Below are positions 192-6,715 of a DNA stretch of 58,898 nucleotides, piece after piece; within the stretch, counting starts at the first letter, position 1; each line of letters begins with the position of its first letter. A program made the translations under genes and the position numbers. The DNA comes from an uncultured bacterium (GTDB taxonomy: Bacteria; Verrucomicrobiota; Verrucomicrobiia; Verrucomicrobiales; DEV007). The notes under the pieces are model-generated. The model had not been told where the DNA came from, searched no databases, and saw only the letters and a list, made by a program, of their open reading frames with translations. The DNA lies in NCBI GenBank assembly GCA_963977015.1, contig CAXBMO010000032.1, forward strand, positions 1 through 58,898, read 5' to 3'.

Positions 192-644
192 TCAACCCCA
201 AAGATACCGCTCATCAAAATCGACTTGATACTTCTTCAAGAACTTCAGGTATTCCTCCTGAAAGGTGGTGACCTTGTGATGTTCTTTCTGGTTTCGAAGA
301 TAGCCCATCGCGACGTCAAGATCGGGCGGACTAACGCTGAACCAGCCATACCCCACCTGCCACGCAAACTTCGGACGATCTGAAAAGGTCGAATTGATCC
401 AACGCGACGAGTCGCCTTTCAGTTGGCTCATGAATTCCTGGTCCGCGACCATTTTGGACTCCCTGATCAAGAGGTGGACATGATCCGGCATTCCACCAAT
501 TTCGAGAAGACTCCCTTCCAGCCGTCGGATGATTCCGCCCATGTATTCGTACAACCTGGACTCGATTTCACCAGTAATCATCGGTTCCCGATTCTTCGTG
601 GAGAACACGATGTGTCCATAGGTGCAGTGTAGTGACTGTGGCAT
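192..644 (-). mobile_element. IS200/IS605-type Y1 HUH transposase (REP-associated tyrosine transposase, RAYT)
   Basis: HIVFSTKNR, HUH motif DHVHLL, FAWQxGYG, YLRNQKEHH; flanked by inverted REP-like palindromes. Confidence 0.9.
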
Positions 645-708
645 GGTTGATGATGATTGGTCGACTGCTGGCGACCTGTCAGGCCGCGATCTTTGCTGAA
701 TCCGATTT

Positions 709-754
709 CACAGGGTTGAAACCCTGTGCTTTGTGCGGATGGGCTTTCAGCCCA
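709..754. repeat. REP-like palindromic element, right flank of RAYT
   Basis: cacagggttgaaaccctgtg...tgggctttcagccca, the reverse complement of 94-139 with few mismatches. Confidence 0.85.
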
Positions 755-820
755 TCATTGCCTAACGCTACTTCCTGGTCCCGCAGGATGCAACTGCCTT
801 GGTTTTTGCCGAAAGTAAAT

Positions 821-852
821 GGCGGCGAACCTGTTTACGCAGGCCCGCCGCC
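821..852 (-). terminator. GC-rich hairpin just downstream of the TROVE gene (possible terminator)
   Basis: ggcggcg-aa-cctg-tttacg-cagg-cc-cgccgcc hairpin about 17 nt past the stop; T-rich tail on the minus strand. Confidence 0.45.
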
Positions 853-869
853 GGGGTTGAAGGTTCCGA

Positions 870-2303
870 TTAAAGTTCCATCGCTTCGATTTGATGGAGA
901 AGCGCGCTCTTGTCCTTTTCGAGGAACATGAGCGTTTCCATCGTCTTATCCGAAAAGCCTGCGAGCGCGTAAACGCCGCGTTCCGGAAATTGAAGCGATC
1001 CGTAACCAGCCAGATCAAAGCTGTAGACACGAGGACGGTTTCCCGCCTTCTTGACATAAGCTTCGAAGCTTTCGGTTGGCGTATAATATCCCATCCAGCC
1101 CTGCATATCAGAGAGGATAACGACGCGATCGTAAGCCTTCCGAGCCGTTTGGAAGATCGCGTGGAAGTTGGTTCCGGCGAACCGGGCCTTTTCTTCCATG
1201 CGTTGCGCCAGACTCAAGGTGCTATCATCACGGTTGAAGGTCTTGAACTCGGCGATATCGCTGAAGAGCATGAGATCCGCATCGTTGGTCTTGTAAAGGA
1301 CCGATGCAAAGAGCGATCCGATCTTGATCGGATTTCCATGCATGGATCCGGAACTATCCAGCGCGATCAACGTACGACCTTCGAGCACCGGAACATTCTC
1401 CAATGCAAGATCGACAGCCTTACTGAGCGCACGAATCACCTTTTGGCGATTTGGCAAATCAGTCGCCTGTTCCACGGCATCCAGAGCGGTGCGGAAGCGG
1501 AACGGCAGCACGAGCGACTTGCGGATCAACCGCGGATCCTGCAGCAACGCAAGCGCGTCATCGACGACGTCCGGAGACTGTTCGAGGATGTTGCGCAGGT
1601 TGCGAAGCAGCGCGAAGTATCCGATCTTGCGACTACGAATGAGGTCCGCCCAGGCTCCCGCCTTACGACCAGCCTTGTCTTCGGCATTCTCCGCTTGTTG
1701 ACCAGCCTGCGTCAGCTTGGTTTCCCAGGTTTCCGCCGGCTGAAGCGTTCCCGCCATCAACTGCCCCAAAGCTTGGGTGTGCGGAGGGTGAAGCAGGTTC
1801 ACCGCATCCACCAGCTTGAGTTCAGCACCTTCGCGCCGGTACTTGGCCAGTTGGTAGGCATCGAACCGGGTCAGGGCTTGGCCCAATCCCTTCTTGAGAG
1901 AGTTTGGCAAGGGCTTTCCATGGACCGCCATGTGGTAGGCCAGGATTTCGAGAACGTCATCAACGCGGTAGACCACGCGATCGAAGAAGCGACGCGTCCA
2001 ATCGGCACCCTTGACCTGGTGCGCCAGTTCCCCGGCGACCAAGTGGCTGACCGAACGCATCCCTGCTTCACGACGAGCATAAAGCGCCGCCTTCGCGACA
2101 AAAGGCTTGTCGTTGATCTCGCGGATCAGTTCCTGGAGCCGCTTTGCGGAATCACCCGCCTTGCGGTAGTACTGGTTTTCCAGGAAACAGGTGAGGAGCA
2201 TGGTCACCAGTTCGAGCTTGGCGCTCTGGGTGAAGGCCTCGCCACCTGCCAGGTTGATGGTTGTCGATTCTGTTTGCTTTTGTCTTTTCAGATTGAACTT
2301 CAT
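870..2303 (-). CDS. rsr: TROVE-domain Ro60 ortholog with C-terminal vWA domain (Rsr-like)
   Basis: INLAGGEAF, FDAYQLAKY, TWETKLT and ALLRNLRN TROVE motifs; MIDAS DSSGS; GTNF; ILSDMQ. AGGAGG SD lies about 11 nt upstream and Y-RNA-like genes are adjacent. Confidence 0.93.
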   Translation of the reverse strand: MKFNLKRQKQTESTTINLAGGEAFTQSAKLELVTMLLTCFLENQYYRKAGDSAKRLQELIREINDKPFVAKAALYARREAGMRSVSHLVAGELAHQVKGADWTRRFFDRVVYRVDDVLEILAYHMAVHGKPLPNSLKKGLGQALTRFDAYQLAKYRREGAELKLVDAVNLLHPPHTQALGQLMAGTLQPAETWETKLTQAGQQAENAEDKAGRKAGAWADLIRSRKIGYFALLRNLRNILEQSPDVVDDALALLQDPRLIRKSLVLPFRFRTALDAVEQATDLPNRQKVIRALSKAVDLALENVPVLEGRTLIALDSSGSMHGNPIKIGSLFASVLYKTNDADLMLFSDIAEFKTFNRDDSTLSLAQRMEEKARFAGTNFHAIFQTARKAYDRVVILSDMQGWMGYYTPTESFEAYVKKAGNRPRVYSFDLAGYGSLQFPERGVYALAGFSDKTMETLMFLEKDKSALLHQIEAMEL

Positions 2304-2383
2304 GAGGTGGTCGGACCTCCTTTCTAGTTAGGGTTGTTGGAAAACTCCCTTCGCGAGCAACGAAGGAAGAAGTTGAGAAAGGA

Positions 2384-2471
2384 TCGGAGAGAAAACCGGT
2401 CGGGGTAATAGCTCACCCAATGTGGATGAATTCGTTTAACAGACGAAGGAACCCCAACCTCACTACTCCGA
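2384..2471 (-). ncRNA. Y-RNA-like gene 1 (short, YrlB-like)
   Basis: Minus strand: terminal stem TCGGAG/CTCCGA, internal loop TAGTGA / GGTTTTCT, stem GGTTGGGG/CCCCGACC, then TTCCTTCG. Same scaffold as the two neighbouring units; immediately upstream of rsr. Confidence 0.7.
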
Positions 2472-2489
2472 AATGGGTGGAGGGAAAGG

Positions 2490-2632
2490 TCACTCTGGAG
2501 AATGCCGGAAGGAGACACAATACCGTGCTCTACCAACTGAGCTATCTCCCAAGAACCTTGGGAGAGTGGGACTCGAACCCACGACCACGCGCGTCGAAAG
2601 CGAAGGAACTCCTCGCCTCACTGCCAGAGTGA
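2490..2632 (-). ncRNA. yrlA: Y RNA with permuted tRNA-like domain (YrlA-like)
   Basis: Terminal stem TCACTCTGG/CCAGAGTGA. The T-arm GTGGG-TTCGAGT-CCCAC comes before a closed acceptor-like hairpin TCTCCCAAG-GTT-CTTGGGAGA and then a D-arm TA-GCTC-AGTTGGTA-GAGC, the order known for YrlA. Confidence 0.88.
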
Positions 2633-2654
2633 TTTTATTTCCCAGGAAAGAGGT

Positions 2655-2780
2655 CACGCGAAGAATAGTGAACCGGGCAAAGTTGTCCGGTCCAAAAAGG
2701 CGGACCGGGCAGGAGTTGAACCTACTAATCTGAGCGCGTCAGACGTACACCGAAGTATCCCAGATTCTCGCTATCGCGTG
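2655..2780 (-). ncRNA. Y-RNA-like gene 3 (T-arm plus closed acceptor-like stem, no D-arm)
   Basis: Terminal stem CACGCGA/TCGCGTG, TAGCGA / ACTATTCT internal loop, ATACTTCG motif, T-arm GTAGG-TTCAACT-CCTGC, then CCGGTCC/GGACCGG hairpin. Confidence 0.75.
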
Positions 2781-2797
2781 TTTTAAAAAAGGCTGAG

Positions 2798-2868
2798 CAT
2801 CCGAGCATGGATTCGAACCATGATTCTCGCCTTCAAAGGGCGATGTCCTTCCGTTAGACGACTCGGAT
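2798..2868 (-). tRNA. tRNA-Gln(TTG)
   Basis: Acceptor ATCCGAG/CTCGGAT; anticodon arm TCGCC-CTTTGAA-GGCGA; T-loop TTCGAAT; no encoded CCA. Confidence 0.9.
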
Positions 2869-2881
2869 GAAAGAAGAAAAA

Positions 2882-2955
2882 TCGGTCTGGAAGGACTTGC
2901 ACCCTCAACCTGCCGGGTAAGAACCGGATGCTCTCCTAACTTGAGCTACAGACCG
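2882..2955 (-). tRNA. tRNA-Lys(CTT)
   Basis: Acceptor CGGTCTG/CAGACCG; anticodon loop TTCTTAC; T-loop TGCAAGT. Confidence 0.85.
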
Positions 2956-2960
2956 TTGTC

Positions 2961-3011
2961 GTAGCCACGATTGGTAATCGTGGTATGAATTCGAGTGCCA
3001 CTCGAATCTAC
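2961..3011. repeat. GTAG-bounded double-hairpin (REP doublet-like) element, copy 1
   Basis: GTAG-CCACGATT-GGT-AATCGTGG ... ATTCGAGT-GCC-ACTCGAAT-CTAC; second copy at 3748-3799. Confidence 0.8.
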
Positions 3012-3016
3012 AAAGG

Positions 3017-3109
3017 CGGAGCTTTGAGGACTTGCACCCCATGCCTCGTTTTCGCGAGGCACCATTCGTTTAGCAAACGACTCCGACACGCTTGTTCGGT
3101 TAAAACTCC
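3017..3109 (-). tRNA. tRNA-Ser(GCT)
   Basis: Acceptor GGAGTTT/AAGCTCC, G73; loop TTGCTAA; long variable arm TGCCTCG/CGAGGCA; T-loop TGCAAGT. Confidence 0.85.
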
Positions 3110-3124
3110 AATCGAAATACCAAG

Positions 3125-3197
3125 TGCCCGTAGCAGGATTTGCACCTGCACTGAACCGCTTTTGAGTCGGCTGCCTCTGCTGTTGGGCTATACGGGC
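3125..3197 (-). tRNA. tRNA-Leu(CAA), short variable loop
   Basis: Acceptor GCCCGTA/TACGGGC, A73; loop CTCAAAA; 5-nt variable loop; T-loop TGCAAAT. Confidence 0.85.
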
Positions 3198-3214
3198 GTT
3201 TCGTTGCAAAGAAG

Positions 3215-3287
3215 TGCTCACGGAAGGATTCGCACCTTCAACTCCTCGGTTTTAAGTCGAGTGCCTCTGCTCTTGGGCCACGTGAGC
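3215..3287 (-). tRNA. tRNA-Leu(TAA), short variable loop
   Basis: Acceptor GCTCACG/CGTGAGC; loop CTTAAAA; T-loop TGCGAAT. Confidence 0.85.
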
Positions 3288-3298
3288 CTGCTCATTCG

Positions 3299-3374
3299 TC
3301 GACCCGGTGGGAATCGCACCCACGTCCTCTCGCTTATAAGGCGAGCGCTCTCACTGCGCCTGAGCTACGGGTCA
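3299..3374 (-). tRNA. tRNA-Ile(TAT)
   Basis: Acceptor TGACCCG/CGGGTCG; arm CTCGC-CTTATAA-GCGAG; T-loop TGCGATT. Confidence 0.85.
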
Positions 3375-3387
3375 AAAGGTAGAACGG

Positions 3388-3460
3388 TACCCACGACAGG
3401 ATTTGCACCTGCAACCTTCCGCTTCTAAAACGGACGCCTCTGCTATTGGGCTACGTGGGC
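3388..3460 (-). tRNA. tRNA-Leu(TAG), short variable loop
   Basis: Acceptor GCCCACG/CGTGGGT; arm TCCGT-TTTAGAA-GCGGA; T-loop TGCAAAT. Confidence 0.85.
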
Positions 3461-3480
3461 CAATGTCAATTTGATGAACG

Positions 3481-3554
3481 TTCCACCGGTCGGTGTCGCA
3501 CCGACATGGTCTCCTTTACGAGAGGAGTGCATTGCTGACTTCTGCCACGGTGGA
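3481..3554 (-). tRNA. tRNA-Thr(CGT)
   Basis: Acceptor TCCACCG/CGGTGGA; arm CTCCT-CTCGTAA-AGGAG; T-loop TGCGACA. Confidence 0.85.
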
Positions 3555-3571
3555 TAAATGGAGTTTGTAGG

Positions 3572-3644
3572 CACTCCCGGTAGGACTCGAACCTACAACC
3601 TGATGCTTCGAAGGCACCCGCTCTTCCAATTGAGCTACAGGAGC
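3572..3644 (-). tRNA. tRNA-Arg(TCG)
   Basis: Acceptor GCTCCTG/CGGGAGT; arm GGTGC-CTTCGAA-GCATC; canonical D-loop GG and T-loop TTCGAGT. Confidence 0.92.
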
Positions 3645-3662
3645 GAAAAGAAATCTAATCAA

Positions 3663-3747
3663 TACGGGATGGAGGATTCGAACCCCTCGACAGCCAACCC
3701 ACAGTTTATGGTCGACACGTTAGAAGCATGTGGTGGGAACATCCCGC
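3663..3747 (-). tRNA. D-armless tRNA-like RNA, anticodon TCT (Arg)
   Basis: 8-bp acceptor GCGGGATG/CATCCCGT; no D-arm; arm ACATG-CTTCTAA-CGTGT; expanded variable region; 4-bp T-stem with TTCGAAT loop. Confidence 0.7.
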
Positions 3748-3799
3748 GTAGCCACGACTGGTAGTCGTGGTTTGAAATTCGAGTCCCACTCGAATCTAC
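3748..3799. repeat. GTAG-bounded double-hairpin (REP doublet-like) element, copy 2
   Basis: GTAG-CCACGACT-GGT-AGTCGTGG ... ATTCGAGT-CCC-ACTCGAAT-CTAC; compensatory T:A to C:G change relative to copy 1. Confidence 0.8.
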
Positions 3800-3810
3800 G
3801 ACTAAAAAAA

Positions 3811-3881
3811 TAGGGGCTGAAGGTAACGCTCCCTCGTCTCCTGTGTGTAAAACAGGCGTCCTACTATTGAACGAAGCCCCC
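3811..3881 (-). tRNA. tRNA-Val(TAC)
   Basis: Acceptor GGGGGCT/AGCCCCT; arm CCTGT-TTTACAC-ACAGG; T-loop AGCGTTA. Confidence 0.85.
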
Positions 3882-3904
3882 ATCACTATGATCATGTGAG
3901 GAAG

Positions 3905-3978
3905 TATCCCGGGAGGGATTTGCACCCCCAACCTCTGCGCACTCAACACAGCGCCTCTGCTGATTGGGCTACCGGGAC
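3905..3978 (-). tRNA. tRNA-Leu(GAG), short variable loop
   Basis: Acceptor GTCCCGG/CCGGGAT; arm CTGTG-TTGAGTG-CGCAG; T-loop TGCAAAT. Confidence 0.83.
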
Positions 3979-3980
3979 AT

Positions 3981-4052
3981 TGGGGCCAACGGCGAGTCTC
4001 TCACTCGCATCTTCCGACTTACAAGGTCGGCGCACTTCTCTGCCACGCTGGC
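3981..4052 (-). tRNA. tRNA-Thr(TGT), CCA encoded
   Basis: Acceptor GCCAGCG/CGTTGGC-C-CCA; arm CCGAC-CTTGTAA-GTCGG; T-loop TGAGAGA; small D-arm. Confidence 0.82.
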
Positions 4053-4069
4053 GTCTCAAAAGAAAGCGG

Positions 4070-4141
4070 TGCGCCGTGCCGGTGCTGCCCCGGCTCCTCC
4101 TGTTTGGAAGACAGACGTCCTAGCTGGTAGACGAACAGCGC
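4070..4141 (-). tRNA. tRNA-Gly(TCC)
   Basis: Acceptor GCGCTGT/ACGGCGC; arm TCTGT-CTTCCAA-ACAGG; T-loop GGCAGCA. Confidence 0.83.
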
Positions 4142-4155
4142 TTCAAGGTGAAAGA

Positions 4156-4229
4156 ATGCCCGTGCGGGAATCGCACCCGCCACACTCTGGGTTGCAACCA
4201 GGCCGGTTCACTAGCTCCGGTCACGGGCG
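4156..4229 (-). tRNA. tRNA-Cys(GCA)
   Basis: GCCCGT/ACGGGC acceptor with U73; loop TTGCAAC; T-loop TGCGATT. Confidence 0.8.
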
Positions 4230-4243
4230 TCTTCCGAGAAAGG

Positions 4244-4316
4244 GTTGATCGACGGGATTTGCACCCGCACCGCAACCTTCACAGGGTCGAATGCTAACAT
4301 TTACACTACGATCAAC
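4244..4316 (-). tRNA. tRNA-His(GTG)
   Basis: G-1:C73 present; acceptor TTGATCG/CGATCAA; arm CGACC-CTGTGAA-GGTTG; T-loop TGCAAAT. Confidence 0.87.
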
Positions 4317-4345
4317 ATCTCTGGATTCAATACCACTACCAAGAG

Positions 4346-4416
4346 TCCCCCCGGTGGGTAACGCTCCCACTTCTGCGGTTTAAAAGACCGCTGCATCACT
4401 TTAATGCTTCGAGGGA
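4346..4416 (-). tRNA. tRNA-Lys(TTT)
   Basis: Acceptor TCCCTCG/CGGGGGG; arm GCGGT-CTTTTAA-ACCGC; T-loop AGCGTTA. Confidence 0.85.
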
Positions 4417-4436
4417 AGAAGTGATGGATTTCTACC

Positions 4437-4507
4437 TATCCCCGCCAGGATTTGCACCTGATCCGACGCCTTCGCACGACGCCATGCTTCTCTTACACTA
4501 CAGGGAC
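4437..4507 (-). tRNA. tRNA-Arg(GCG)
   Basis: Acceptor GTCCCTG/CGGGGAT; arm GCGTC-GTGCGAA-GGCGT; T-loop TGCAAAT. Confidence 0.8.
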
Positions 4508-4530
4508 AACTCCATTCGCTACCGCCAAAA

Positions 4531-4601
4531 CGCCTCATGCCGGTTACGCTCCGACTCAACCTGTTCGACAGACAGGCAGGCTACTATTACATCAATGAGG
4601 C
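4531..4601 (-). tRNA. tRNA-Asp(GTC)
   Basis: Acceptor GCCTCAT/ATGAGGC, G73; arm CCTGT-CTGTCGA-ACAGG; T-loop AGCGTAA. Confidence 0.83.
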
Positions 4602-4613
4602 TTGTTGAAGAAG

Positions 4614-4685
4614 TGGCTGGCTCCGGAATTGCACCGGGCTCTCGTCGCCTTCAACGACACGCTAATCTGTCTCAGCTATCCAGCC
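4614..4685 (-). tRNA. tRNA-Phe(GAA)
   Basis: GGCTGG/CCAGCC acceptor; arm TGTCG-TTGAAGG-CGACG; T-loop TGCAATT. Confidence 0.8.
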
Positions 4686-4700
4686 TTTGAATTCCCGAAA

Positions 4701-4771
4701 TCGTCCTGGATGGTAACGCTCCACCGTCTACCGGTTATCAACCGGTTGCTCTGCTTTTGAGCTACAGGACG
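4701..4771 (-). tRNA. tRNA-Ile(GAT)
   Basis: Acceptor CGTCCTG/CAGGACG; arm ACCGG-TTGATAA-CCGGT; T-loop AGCGTTA. Confidence 0.87.
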
Positions 4772-4782
4772 CGAAAGAAAGG

Positions 4783-4854
4783 CACCTCCGCTTGGACTCG
4801 AACCAAGCTCGCGAGGCTTAACAGGCCTGCTGCACACCCGGTGCATTCGAAGGT
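4783..4854 (-). tRNA. tRNA-Asn(GTT)
   Basis: Acceptor ACCTTCG/CGGAGGT, G73; loop CTGTTAA; T-loop TTCGAGT. Confidence 0.85.
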
Positions 4855-4862
4855 CAAAGAAG

Positions 4863-4937
4863 ACTCGGGGGCGGGAATCGAACCCGCGTGAAAGGCGGCT
4901 TATGAGGCCCCTTCGAGACGCCAACGCTCTCCCCGAA
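4863..4937 (-). tRNA. tRNA with CAT anticodon (Met, atypical D-arm and anticodon stem)
   Basis: Acceptor TTCGGGG/CCCCGAG; loop CTCATAA; T-arm GCGGG-TTCGATT-CCCGC. Confidence 0.75.
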
Positions 4938-4962
4938 GAATGGAAATGTTCGAACCAAGATA

Positions 4963-5054
4963 CGGGCCACGGAGGTCCTGCCCCCCAAACGCAGGACTAC
5001 TGCGTTCAATCCGTTTTCAAGACGGTTCCGGCACGCTTGTCCGGTTCGGGACCC
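4963..5054 (-). tRNA. tRNA-Ser(TGA)
   Basis: Same unusual D region as Ser(GCT) (CCGGACAAGCGTGCCGG); loop CTTGAAA; long variable arm AACGCAG/CTGCGTT; T-loop GGCAGGA; G73. Confidence 0.78.
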
Positions 5055-5076
5055 ATGTCTCTTTGGTTGTGAAAGG

Positions 5077-5162
5077 TAGGTCCTGGTGGAATCGCACCAC
5101 GCGTCGACTTTCGGCTTCTTTTATGACAACGGTTTTACAGACCGCCAGCCGAGGCAGGACCT
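5077..5162 (-). tRNA. D-armless tRNA-like RNA, anticodon GTA (Tyr)
   Basis: 8-bp acceptor AGGTCCTG/CAGGACCT, A73; no D-arm; arm GCGGT-CTGTAAA-ACCGT; expanded variable region; 4-bp T-stem GTGG-TGCGATT-CCAC. Confidence 0.75.
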
Positions 5163-5175
5163 ATGTGAAAGAAAT

Positions 5176-5251
5176 TGGCAAGGCGTGGGGGAATTGAACC
5201 CGCCGTTCCCAGACTGAAAACCTGGTGTCCTAGCCATTAGACGAACGCCTC
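5176..5251 (-). tRNA. tRNA-Glu(TTC), CCA encoded
   Basis: Acceptor GAGGCGT/ACGCCTT-G-CCA; arm CCAGG-TTTTCAG-TCTGG; T-loop TTCAATT. Confidence 0.88.
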
Positions 5252-5268
5252 ATTTGGAAAAATGGAAA

Positions 5269-5336
5269 TGGGAGGTCCTGGTAACGCTCCAGGCATCCAG
5301 GGTTATGAGCCCCGGGGCAGAACTTTCTGACCTCCA
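5269..5336 (-). tRNA. Initiator-like tRNA-Met(CAT) with miniature D-arm
   Basis: 1:72 mismatch (T/C), GGAGGT/ACCTCC acceptor, three G-C pairs next to the CTCATAA loop, D-arm reduced to CAGA-AAGT-TCTG, T-loop AGCGTTA. Confidence 0.72.
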
Positions 5337-5350
5337 ATCTGCTGATTGCG

Positions 5351-5424
5351 TCGCGGTGGTAGGACTCGCACCTACTTCCTGAGACTTCCAAGGTCCCTAT
5401 CTCGACTACTTCGACCTCACCGCG
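5351..5424 (-). tRNA. tRNA-Pro(TGG)
   Basis: Acceptor CGCGGTG/CACCGCG, A73; arm GGGAC-CTTGGAA-GTCTC; T-loop TGCGAGT. Confidence 0.85.
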
Positions 5425-5434
5425 AAAACTGGTA

Positions 5435-5507
5435 TGGAGACACTCGGTAACGCTCCGAGTCCTGCTGCTTGCAAGGCAGCCGTGCTATCTTTTATCACTA
5501 TGCCCCC
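5435..5507 (-). tRNA. tRNA-Ala(TGC)
   Basis: Acceptor GGGGGCA/TGTCTCC with the G3:U70 identity pair; arm GCTGC-CTTGCAA-GCAGC; T-loop AGCGTTA. Confidence 0.88.
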
Positions 5508-5513
5508 AAAGAA

Positions 5514-5590
5514 TGGCAGACTGCGAGAGAATCGAACTCTCTAAGCGCAAGGTTTGGAATCTTGCCGCGACACCCACTCGCCGACAGTCT
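5514..5590 (-). tRNA. tRNA-Trp(CCA), CCA encoded
   Basis: Acceptor AGACTGT/GCAGTCT-G-CCA; loop TTCCAAA; T-arm GAGAG-TTCGATT-CTCTC. Confidence 0.82.
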
Positions 5591-5612
5591 GCATTGATAC
5601 TTCTTTCCACAA

Positions 5613-5797
5613 TTCTCTGAAGCATGAAGGGAACTTCCAAGCCTGACGATTCATCACGGATTCTTCACGCGTGAACCCATGTGATTTAGAAGCGGCATGC
5701 TGTTGAGCGCGCCGCCGTTTCAATATTTGGATTTGGGTTCCGGGAAGAGGAAGGATGGAATCGAACTGATGATCCGTTCTACCTTCGCTTCAGAGAA
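5613..5797 (-). ncRNA. Unassigned ~185-nt structured RNA (possibly a long Y-type RNA)
   Basis: Long closing helix TTCTCTGAAGC-GAAGG-TA-GAAC / GTTC-CCTTC-AT-GCTTCAGAGAA; internal helices GAACCCA/TGGGTTC and GCGGCGCGCT/AGCATGCCGC. Confidence 0.6.
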
Positions 5798-5800
5798 AGA

Positions 5801-5942
5801 CGAACACCGTTACCGATCGTTACTCGGTAGCCGCAGGTTTTCACAGACGGACGTTTCGGTGTCTAACAGGCACACCTCCCTTACATAGAAGCCTCTTGGG
5901 TTGCCATTCCCAAGAGACAAACACTTTCCGTAACACGATTCG
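5801..5942 (-). ncRNA. Unassigned ~140-nt structured RNA candidate
   Basis: Hairpin GTCTCTTGGG/CCCAAGAGGC (its G-U wobble works only on the minus strand), ACACCG/CGGTGT, TACCGA/TCGGTA; ends partly complementary. Confidence 0.4.
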
Positions 5943-6057
5943 AAAATGGTGTGATCCGGTTGACCAAGTTGAAGACTTGTATAAATTAGAAACTTGTAGG
6001 TGAGCTAATCTATCAGGCTTCCCCTTTCGGGAGAACTTGGTAAGGTTTGCCTCTCTG

Positions 6058-6112
6058 GCCTGTTCTTGAGGTTGGATCAGTTGCCGCTGACCGCCTCGGG
6101 AACGGGCTTTTT
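6058..6112 (+). terminator. Plus-strand hairpin plus T5 (possible terminator of an antisense transcript)
   Basis: GCCTGTTCTTGAGG/CCTCGGGAACGGGC, 14 bp with three G-U pairs that form only on the plus strand, followed by TTTTT. Confidence 0.45.
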
Positions 6113-6211
6113 AATGGCTATGTCTAATTGATTGATTGATTAATGAATTGGTTCGTCAGTTGATGAGATCAAAAATTCCTTTCTTGCTGATTTTAAGAGA
6201 GTTACAGGACA

Positions 6212-6245
6212 CAAAAAACCCTGCCTCGGGGATGAGAGCAGGGTT
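6212..6245 (-). terminator. Intrinsic terminator between leader ORF and RNA array (attenuator)
   Basis: Minus strand AACCCTGC-TCTCATCCCCGAG-GCAGGGTT-TTTTGT. Confidence 0.8.
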
Positions 6246-6292
6246 CACGTCAAAAAAACTGGGTAGTATTCTCGTTACGTAAACCGCCTCTC
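6234..6292 (-). promoter_or_regulatory. Candidate antiterminator helix
   Basis: GAGAG-GC-GGTTTACGT (6292-6277, last leader codons) pairs with ACGTGAACC-CTG-CTCTC (6250-6234, terminator 5' arm and loop). Confidence 0.65.
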
Positions 6293-6466
6293 TTTGGGTT
6301 CATCACCACTACGGTATCCCAGATGATTCTGGGCAAAAATGGCGACTGTCTCTCCTTTTGCATCCCACTTTGTCCGGGGCAAAATCCATCCCGCGATGAG
6401 ACACGATGTCTCCCGCTGAGGCAATGCTGCCTGCATTGGTATGGTTCTGTTGTTGGAGAATGACAT
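6275..6466 (-). CDS. Putative leader peptide (63 aa) of the tRNA/Y RNA/rsr operon
   Basis: ATG about 40 nt after the -10 box; the stop codon overlaps the antiterminator strand; terminator about 30 nt downstream. No obvious SD. Confidence 0.55.
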   Translation of the reverse strand: MSFSNNRTIPMQAALPQRETSCLIAGWILPRTKWDAKGETVAIFAQNHLGYRSGDEPKERRFT

Positions 6467-6506
6467 TGAAATTGAAAGCTAAAGTATTGCTCTTGTTCTG
6501 CGGGTG

Positions 6507-6535
6507 ACCTTAGCACTGAACAATACGATTGTCAA
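6507..6535 (-). promoter_or_regulatory. sigma70-type promoter for the leader/tRNA array
   Basis: Minus strand TTGACA (6535-6530), 17-nt spacer, TAAGGT (6512-6507) preceded by TGn; AT-rich upstream. Confidence 0.75.
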
Positions 6536-6715
6536 CCCTCTACTATTTCTATTTTCTCCTAACACTACCATCCTACTATATTATTTGAGAGCTTTCCGGT
6601 TTACACATTCCCCTGCAAACGGCATCAACGGTGCGGTATCCGATCATCTCCCCAGCCAGGGAGCATTTGAAAACGATGACGGACGCGCACGTTGTTCCTC
6701 TTTCTCAAACGCCGC

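Follow-up and report, generated by a model that had tools for sequence, protein, structure and literature searches.

Transcription attenuators of the trp type, exemplified by trpL, hisL, pheL, leuL, thrL and ilvL, combine a short promoter-proximal open reading frame (ORF) with an intrinsic terminator and a mutually exclusive antiterminator, such that a ribosome at the stop codon favours the terminator and a ribosome stalled upstream favours read-through. Here we describe a locus with the same layout on the minus strand of a 58,898-nucleotide (nt) stretch of DNA (contig CAXBMO010000032.1 of GenBank assembly GCA_963977015.1; hereafter, the window) from an uncultured bacterium of the order Verrucomicrobiales (DEV007). 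Judging from its sequence and those of its relatives, a 63-codon leader ORF, together with two alternative RNA helices, probably constitutes a ribosome-operated transcription attenuator heading an operon that comprises a spare array of transfer RNA (tRNA) genes, a Y-like RNA and rsr, the gene for the Ro60 orthologue Rsr. The attenuator would work like those of the trp type, yet lacks the run of cognate codons by which that type is defined: the leader in the window has no codon run for one amino acid, and the leaders of this group, 45-137 codons in length, nearly always contain all 20. In addition, no conserved 1:2 anti-antiterminator was found in these leaders, and the putative targets are tRNAs, a Y-like RNA and Ro60 rather than biosynthetic enzymes. 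The spacing between the stop codon and the terminator is similar to that in trp.

The downstream genes have described counterparts under other kinds of control. The L-array (trn operon) of Anabaena sp. PCC 7120 is described as long, supernumerary, silent by default and induced when translation is impaired, with the induction acting through promoter repeats, for which a promoter-bound repressor was proposed; Planctomycetes are named in the same source among the phyla with L-arrays (PMC8421152). In the window, by contrast, control would lie in a translated leader with a terminator, and neither the word 'leader' nor the word 'terminator' occurs in the text of that paper, supplements aside. In Salmonella, the RNA repair operon rsr-yrlBA-rtcBA is described as controlled by RtcR, a sigma-54 activator responding to damaged tRNAs (PMC7790460). 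The likeness is that genes for Ro60 and Y RNA are turned on upon trouble with tRNAs or translation; the difference is that the predicted control element here is a cis-acting leader ORF, that there is no rtcB or rtcR at the locus, and that about 22 tRNA genes would belong to the operon. Upstream ORFs that report several kinds of stalling via premature termination are described for Escherichia coli (toiL, before topAI-yjhQ; PMC12121999) and for mycobacterial whiB7 (PMC10274678). Judging by their abstracts, which mention neither an all-amino-acid design nor tRNA genes, these systems act in responses to antibiotics or to alanine starvation, with a toxin-antitoxin pair or a transcription factor as the target. 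A full-text literature search found no paper in which a tRNA array or a Ro60 operon is preceded by a leader ORF or an attenuator, and the sensor design and its targets are without description in the searchable literature. Little is known of the control and purpose of L-arrays beyond one cyanobacterium, and the present locus suggests a concrete answer for a whole bacterial family, namely, an array wired to a sensor of ribosome progress. Bacterial Ro60 and Y RNA, the triggers of which are poorly understood, would thereby be tied to translational stalling, in parallel to Salmonella RtcR but through an unrelated mechanism.

Two alternative helices at the end of a leader ORF

An earlier note on this DNA had proposed an attenuator that senses stalling in general ahead of the tRNA, Y RNA and rsr genes, and the comparative evidence presented below supports this proposal, the regulation as such being a prediction. 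The promoter, the 63-codon ORF about 40 nt past the -10 box, the 9 + 5 base pair (bp) pairing and the terminator that it had listed are all present (Table 1), and its statements that the leader contains no run of a single amino acid and is not preceded by an evident Shine-Dalgarno (SD) sequence held up as well: no residue accounts for more than 6 of the 63 positions, and no SD-like 4-mer is found upstream of the ATG, which lies 40 nt past the -10 box. The segment GAGAGGCGGTTTACGT (6292-6277) pairs with ACGTGAACC and CTCTC through 9 + 5 bp, including one U-G. The final 30 nt of the ORF are predicted to form a duplex of -19.4 kcal/mol with the terminator arm and its flank, compared to -9.4 ± 2.6 kcal/mol for 500 shuffles of the tail (z = -3.9), none of which is as good, and the fold of the 306-nt leader as a whole yields z = -4.0 against 100 shuffles. 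The two helices had been called mutually exclusive; this is accurate for the last 4 bp (AACC) and for GAGAG:CTCTC, which compete with the terminator, and inaccurate for the 9-bp core, which can coexist with it.

A DNA search of 40 relatives recovered the 3' third of the leader in a congener and the terminator region alone in eight other genomes, several of which have tRNAs downstream. When read, these loci displayed the same layout each time, with an ATG ORF ending 25-35 nt before the terminator arm AACCCTGC, a range that holds for the first 14 loci. A further match from this search (L004 in G037, query positions 134-171) involved another part of the query, had no tRNA nearby and was dropped. 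Two pattern searches, covering 134 genomes of the family and 401 of the order, together with inspection of rsr loci, raised the set to 27, and a covariance model, R1, was built on 25 sequences. R1 matched none of nine ordinary terminators with the same stem, which an exact-pattern search had returned and which served as negative controls, and produced matches in 55 of the 134 family genomes, representing 20 of 30 genera. Among 163 genomes from six further families of the order, the pattern did not reveal the element, and the single pattern match among 119 genomes of a seventh family (G391) proved false, with neither an ORF nor a hairpin. Metagenome contigs yielded four new leaders, with 72 of the 80 loci scored by R1 (those listed, of 83 reported stretches) failing the model, whereas four pattern hits in viral contigs had neither a model match nor tRNAs and are chance matches. 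No Rfam family was matched by the leader or by element B, a downstream motif discussed below, even at E <= 5. Two genomes contain two copies each, G001 (C16:123476-123580 and C36:657-758) and G023 (C194:4005-4104 and C131:10700-10795), the second copies having lower scores and 18 and 17 amino acids, respectively.

Conservation across the homologous loci extends to the ORF, the position of its stop codon and both helices, antiterminator and terminator, each of which shows covariation. All 58 evaluable genome copies have an open ATG ORF of 45-137 codons with its end on the antiterminator strand (27 of 27, and 31 of 31 found by the model; one further copy, cut by a contig end, is outside the 58). 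The automated calls placed the stop at model offset 33 in 29 of 31 cases and at offset 36, 3 nt later, in the other two, and in G141, where 1 nt is deleted, a stop 5 nt further on is used. The ORF is kept despite in-frame indels and near-total divergence of the peptides, which are mostly unalignable; the middle of the leader is not conserved, and the C-terminus varies along with the RNA (RFT, RST, RLT, RFM, RFI, GST and others). Between G000 and G002, six non-synonymous changes and one synonymous change were read from the alignment of the conserved 3' part, and no Pfam family was matched by the 63-residue peptide or by an overlapping 88-residue ORF. A TTGAC-type -35 box with a TAnnnN -10 box occupies the same place in 50 of the 58 leaders, the median distance from the end of the -10 box to the ATG being 22 nt, and the -10 box is nearer to the consensus in relatives (for instance, TACAAT in G002) than in the window. 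An SD-like GGAG, GAGG or AGGA within positions -20 to -4 relative to the ATG is present in 1 of 58.

The antiterminator consists of two parts, namely, a 9-bp core, GGTTYACGT/ACGTRAACC, often extended across the stop codon, and, upstream of it, a strand rich in G (typically GGGAGGGCG) whose partner is the top of the terminator 5' arm; the segment AACC..CTCTC is shared with that arm. Pairing within the core is kept by a variety of substitutions, including ACAT:ATGT, ATAT:ATAT, CATG:CATG, TTTAC:GTAAA, GTCCAC:GTGGAC and GCTCAC:GTGAGC. In a plain MAFFT alignment of 25 sequences, 96% of the core cells are paired, three of the nine pairs have changed on both sides, and none of 500 shuffles reaches the covariation score. 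The corresponding values for the terminator, likewise in 25 sequences, are 94.3% paired, compared to 37-62% in slid registers, with 5 of 12 pairs changed on both sides and none of 500 shuffles as high. The whole 17-bp antiterminator was assessed in a model-fitted alignment of 57 sequences, which is biased towards its fitted structure; here, 87.3% of the cells are paired (24-52% in slid registers), 12 of the 17 pairs (52 cells) have changed on both sides, and again no shuffle out of 500 attains the score. In the shared strand, alignment column 78 (window position 6240) covaries with both of its alternative partners.

For nascent transcripts ending before the terminator 3' arm, the predicted fold of lowest energy is the antiterminator in 14 of 14 cases. 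In the full-length RNA, the two states are close to equal (mean -30.1 versus -28.5 kcal/mol), the antiterminator being the more stable in 13 of 25, with the qualification that the column-based terminator constraint fits G017, G044 and G071 poorly, so that their terminator energies are underestimates. Under constrained folding with the footprint of a ribosome at the stop masked, the terminator forms in 25 of 25. With the energies of the two states so close, timing and the occupancy of the leader by ribosomes must determine the outcome.

Amino acid completeness of the leader peptides

The earlier note had based the idea of a pan-tRNA sensor on the presence of all 20 amino acids and 41 distinct codons in the leader peptide. 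Both counts were reproduced, but the signal carried by the leader is amino acid completeness, not codon diversity: the null expectation is 38.1 ± 2.2 codons (P = 0.14), and the argument is thus unsupported at the codon level. The caveat that had accompanied it, namely, that a random ORF of this length would look similar, is accordingly valid for codons and invalid for amino acids, the complete set of which is found in 44 of the 58 leaders. Taken alone, the leader in the window is only suggestive, with a probability of 0.02-0.15 for all 20 amino acids in 63 codons under four null models, so that the significance of the property comes from the homologues. The codons of the leader are poorer than those of genes of the same genome (index 0.61 versus 0.77).

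Completeness was first noticed by eye, in the first nine loci, and tested afterwards. In the first set, 12 of 14 leaders contain all 20 amino acids, whereas 0.26 would be expected from same-length ATG ORFs of the genome, 0.66 from segments of long ORFs, and 1.07 from random codons with the base composition of the leader (P = 1e-21, 7e-16 and 6e-14, respectively). Following the pattern searches, the count rose to 23 of 27 (expected 3.0-4.1; P = 4e-22 to 8e-18), and it was 8 of 10 (expected 1.5-1.8; P ~1e-6) for the clusters that had not been used to form the idea. In a third set, defined only by the model and with ORFs called by script, 21 of 31 leaders are complete (expected 4.9-5.9; P = 2e-10 to 4e-12), which brings all genome copies to the 44 of 58 given above (expected 8.3-9.9; P = 4e-26 to 9e-30). 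Clustering of the peptides by percent identity proved meaningless, as cheap gaps chained random pairs; the clusters used here are from shuffle-calibrated local alignment, which still chains 33 leaders into one cluster. Because of this chaining, we also report the test on the worst member of each of the 17 peptide clusters, 11 of which are complete (expected 1.7-2.1; P ~1e-7), along with 5 of 7 for the clusters made only of the third set (expected 1.0-1.2; P ~1e-3). All four new leaders from metagenomes contain the 20 amino acids.

The property is specific to the reading frame, given that the other two forward frames of the same DNA are complete in 1 and 5 of 27 cases and the reverse frames in 5, 8 and 2 of 27. 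Trp, Cys and Tyr usually occur exactly once each per leader. Removal of the last 5 codons leaves 43 of the 58 leaders complete, and removal of the last 8, 10 and 13 leaves 32, 21 and 11. The complete set is therefore upstream of the final codons, which fits the last codons being blind to stalling because a ribosome stalled there would cover the antiterminator. These leaders appear to be a rare case in which selection visibly acts on what a peptide is composed of rather than on its sequence. A classic attenuator reports a single amino acid by a codon run, whereas this design appears to report all of them by completeness, and further sensors could be sought by screening for ORFs of fewer than 90 codons that end on an antiterminator and include all 20 amino acids.

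Downstream genes and competing explanations

Same-strand tRNA arrays are found downstream of the leader in 25 of the first 27 loci and within 1.5 kilobases (kb) in 10 of 14 further loci, the retrieved stretch being too short to judge in the remaining 18 loci of the third set. In the genome to which the window belongs, every one of the 20 amino acids is already served by the 41 tRNAs encoded outside the array, so the array is a spare (supernumerary) set; with about 22 closely spaced same-strand tRNA genes in 2.8 kb beside a complete dispersed set, it is an L-array. Thirteen of its 17 anticodons are also found elsewhere in the genome, and Arg-TCG, Ile-TAT, Leu-GAG and Lys-CTT occur in the array only. 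The four array tRNA genes with Leu anticodons (3124-3197, 3214-3287, 3386-3460 and 3904-3978) are 74-75 nt long and thus have no long variable arm; outside the array, the genome has five tRNA-Leu genes, with lengths of 82-85 nt. The YrlA-like match that follows the array spans model positions 24-84 of 114, with a score short of the gathering threshold. The rsr gene adjoins the tRNA array in 5 of 40 relatives (G002, G017, G009, G016 and G037), with the orthologues sharing 61-84% identity. Arrays with rsr are also present in two other families, where the leaders differ in sequence and have a similar layout; the 55-residue leader of G037 contains all 20 amino acids, and the 67-residue leader of G026 contains 19.

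The first tRNA lies about 620 nt beyond the terminator, and this interval contains element B, a conserved motif of about 85 nt (GGGAGGUGUGCC..ACACCGAAACGUCCG..GAAA..CCUGCGGCU, a variable hairpin, then AACGGUGUUCGUUCUUUU). BLAST places element B 300-400 nt 3' of the attenuator in nearly all leader loci, and it also heads arrays in two other families in which this leader sequence is absent (L033:8989-9046 in G026 and L035:5659-5706 in G037). Its predicted fold combines a hairpin with a three-way junction, and 6 of the 21 pairs show changes on both sides. Directly behind element B, G017 has a strong hairpin (-27 kcal/mol) with a T-run (L030:6627-6659), possibly a second terminator that acts in tandem with the leader attenuator. 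Just 5' of element B in the window, a 10-bp hairpin followed by TTCTATGT (5891-5918, minus strand) is weakly terminator-like and is conserved in G002.

We infer the translation of the ORF, the direction of the switch, the co-transcription of the array and the physiological signal from comparisons of sequences, and the proposed course of events is as follows. The leader ORF would be transcribed from the sigma-70-type promoter and translated without an SD sequence. Its final codons, GAGAG..GGTTTACGT, the last base of which is the stop-codon U, are complementary to the 5' flank and 5' arm of the terminator about 30 nt downstream. A lead ribosome arriving on time at or near the stop would cover the antiterminator strand, the terminator would form, and transcription would end at approximately position 6213 (OFF). 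If the ribosome were delayed earlier in the ORF, or not loaded, the antiterminator would form first and remove the base of the terminator stem, letting the polymerase continue into element B and the tRNA, Y-like RNA and rsr genes beyond it (ON); read-through would likewise be the default with no ribosome at all. A race between the polymerase and the lead ribosome would thus decide. Ahead of the last five codons of the leader, selection would retain at least one codon per amino acid, and, with every amino acid kept, a shortage of any single charged tRNA should suffice for read-through. Starvation, tRNA damage or cleavage, or a translation inhibitor are possible triggers, and induction of the array under translational stress would follow from the attenuator. 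On balance, and with reserve, we lean towards viewing the leader as a universal 'test strip' of translation, a peptide that could drift freely apart from keeping its 20 amino acids, whereby the loss of any aminoacyl-tRNA, which could stem from starvation, an anticodon nuclease of a phage or competitor, or chemical damage, would delay the lead ribosome and switch on a back-up kit of replacement tRNAs and Ro60/Y RNA quality control (in one relative, an RNA-repair operon). If this is true, the leader would be a cis-encoded, protein-free alarm for tRNA integrity.

Several observations weigh against this explanation. Fourteen of the 58 leaders are devoid of one to three amino acids, with W and V each missing in five leaders, Y in four, D in three, E in two, and C, I, F and K in one each, so that completeness, although strongly favoured, is no rule. 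The window leader is not more diverse in codons than expected, and the leaders share descent, such that the statistics treat them as more independent than they are; the result nevertheless survives the conservative cluster test. The terminator and antiterminator states are nearly equal in energy and the 9-bp core can coexist with the terminator, neither a conserved pause hairpin nor a trp-like anti-antiterminator (1:2) was seen in the leaders, and, until its partner has been transcribed, the antiterminator 5' strand is free of pairing only about half the time (mean unpaired probability of 0.35-0.70 in 15 loci). A leader of 45-137 codons would also need the polymerase and the lead ribosome to be kept in step. 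The gap of about 620 nt, the second conserved motif within it, and the hairpin and T-run of G017 allow for a directly gated target other than the tRNA array. Finally, two leader loci have no tRNA array downstream. In G149 (L093, G149:C13:18400-29000), there is no tRNA within 10 kb and genes for an HNH endonuclease and glycosyltransferases are found instead; the array may have been lost or moved. The G149 leader is the nearest to that of the window in terminator sequence. In G011 (L096, G011:C91:3300-7723, ORFs 478-4204), a weaker variant of the leader and terminator is located directly before an RNA-repair operon encoding two RlaP nucleotidyltransferases, an RNA ligase (PF09414) and an HD plus AAA_33 kinase protein.

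Some of these observations would be accommodated if the attenuator, while real, directly gated element B or another leader RNA and the array, the Y-like RNA and rsr obeyed separate signals, in a two-tier or unrelated arrangement. The distance from the terminator to the first tRNA, the wider distribution of element B compared to the leader (G026 and G037 belonging to other families), the hairpin (-27 kcal/mol) and T-run behind it in G017, and the weak terminator-like hairpin at 5918-5891 all speak for such an arrangement. It is nevertheless improbable, because the leader, element B and the array occur in the same order and on the same strand in nearly all loci, a consensus scan revealed no promoter-like site on the minus strand from 6213 to 5590, and a sensor for all amino acids makes most sense for tRNA supply. 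A transcript running from the promoter to the terminator, about 290 nt in length, would also be a complete unit in itself, and it folds better than shuffled sequences (z = -4.0), as expected of an ordinary small-protein or small RNA gene with its own terminator, in which case the array would have its own promoter and the pairing of the tail would have no regulatory role. That the peptides are mostly unalignable, with a C-terminus that changes while compensatory changes keep the RNA pairing, makes this very unlikely, as do the lack of a Pfam match, the six non-synonymous changes against one synonymous change between G000 and G002 in the conserved 3' part, and the covariation backing a helix that excludes the terminator.

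The scarcity of SD-like motifs, found in a single leader of 58, could be taken to mean that the ORF is untranslated and that a protein, an uncharged tRNA or a small ligand selects between the helices, which would by themselves make a workable switch. We give little credence to such an RNA-only device in view of the ORF that stays open in 58 of 58 copies through indels, with its stop fixed on the helix, and of the frame specificity of amino acid completeness; moreover, there is no conserved core resembling a ligand pocket upstream of the helices, the middle of the leader not being conserved. Attenuators of the erm or cat type likewise have leader ORFs without regulatory codon runs, but a drug-specific arrest peptide is scarcely credible here, since arrest peptides keep their sequence whereas only the part fixed by RNA pairing is conserved in these leaders, and the downstream genes are not resistance genes.

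Layout of the locus and neighbouring features

On the minus strand, the promoter, 5' untranslated region, ORF, spacer, terminator, RNA motif, tRNAs, YrlA-like match and rsr are followed by a gene for an IS200-type transposase (Table 1).

Table 1. Positions of the leader, its RNA elements and the downstream genes in the window
Feature	Positions	Strand	Description and evidence
Promoter	6507..6535	-	-35 TTGACA (6535-6530), 17-nt spacer, -10 TAAGGT (6512-6507)
5' untranslated region	6467..6506	-	40 nt, G-poor, no SD sequence
Leader ORF	6275..6466	-	63 codons, ATG at 6466, stop TAA 6277-6275, all 20 amino acids
Antiterminator 5' strand	6277..6292	-	within final ORF codons; GAGAG (6292-6288) and GGTTTACGT (6285-6277, T of TAA included)
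Spacer	6251..6274	-	24 nt, separating the antiterminator strands; small weak hairpin (folds); sequence varies among homologues
Antiterminator 3' strand	6234..6250	-	ACGTGAACC (6250-6242), CTG (6241-6239), CTCTC (6238-6234); overlaps terminator 5' arm
Intrinsic terminator	6213..6245	-	stem AACCCTGC(T)CTC / GAGGCAGGGTT, T-run 6218-6213; hairpin -17.0 kcal/mol
Terminator arms	6245-6238, 6224-6217	-	AACCCTGC and GCAGGGTT, respectively
Element B	5796..5880	-	conserved structured RNA motif between attenuator and first tRNA; BLAST, consensus fold
L-array	2797..5590	-	~22 tRNA genes, all on the same strand; 18 by ARAGORN, 4 by Rfam only
YrlA-like RNA (bacterial Y RNA) candidate	2524..2589	-	Rfam RF02553, 39.6 bits, E 3.5e-6, gathering score 69
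rsr (Ro60 orthologue)	870..2303	-	477 residues; Pfam TROVE E 6.2e-21; vWA_Ro60 20.7 bits, cut-off 27.7

No RNA run was listed for positions 2300-6700. Contigs of four sequencing runs, one of them presumed to be RNA, include only pieces of the tRNA and Y-like regions of relatives; no contig of the presumed RNA run covers 5681-6562, and contigs are blind to transcript ends, which makes this result uninformative. A stretch 3' of the terminator (6030-6135, minus strand) appeared by eye to be common to several genomes, with ACATAGC..AAAAGCCCG, a hairpin with CAGCGGCAACTG and then GAGAGGCAAACC; BLAST at E 1e-3 matched it only to the source genome. At the contig end, adjoining the gene for the IS200-like transposase, positions 22-139 consist of tandem 15-nt repeats of the TCTGGCTGGACTGTT type, and positions 94-139 produce a sub-threshold match to the Acido-Lenti-1 RNA (31.1 bits, compared to a gathering score of 37). 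In the window as a whole, which is an entire contig, the Pfam matches of the encoded proteins include DUF1552, DUF1592, PSCyt and many sulfatases.

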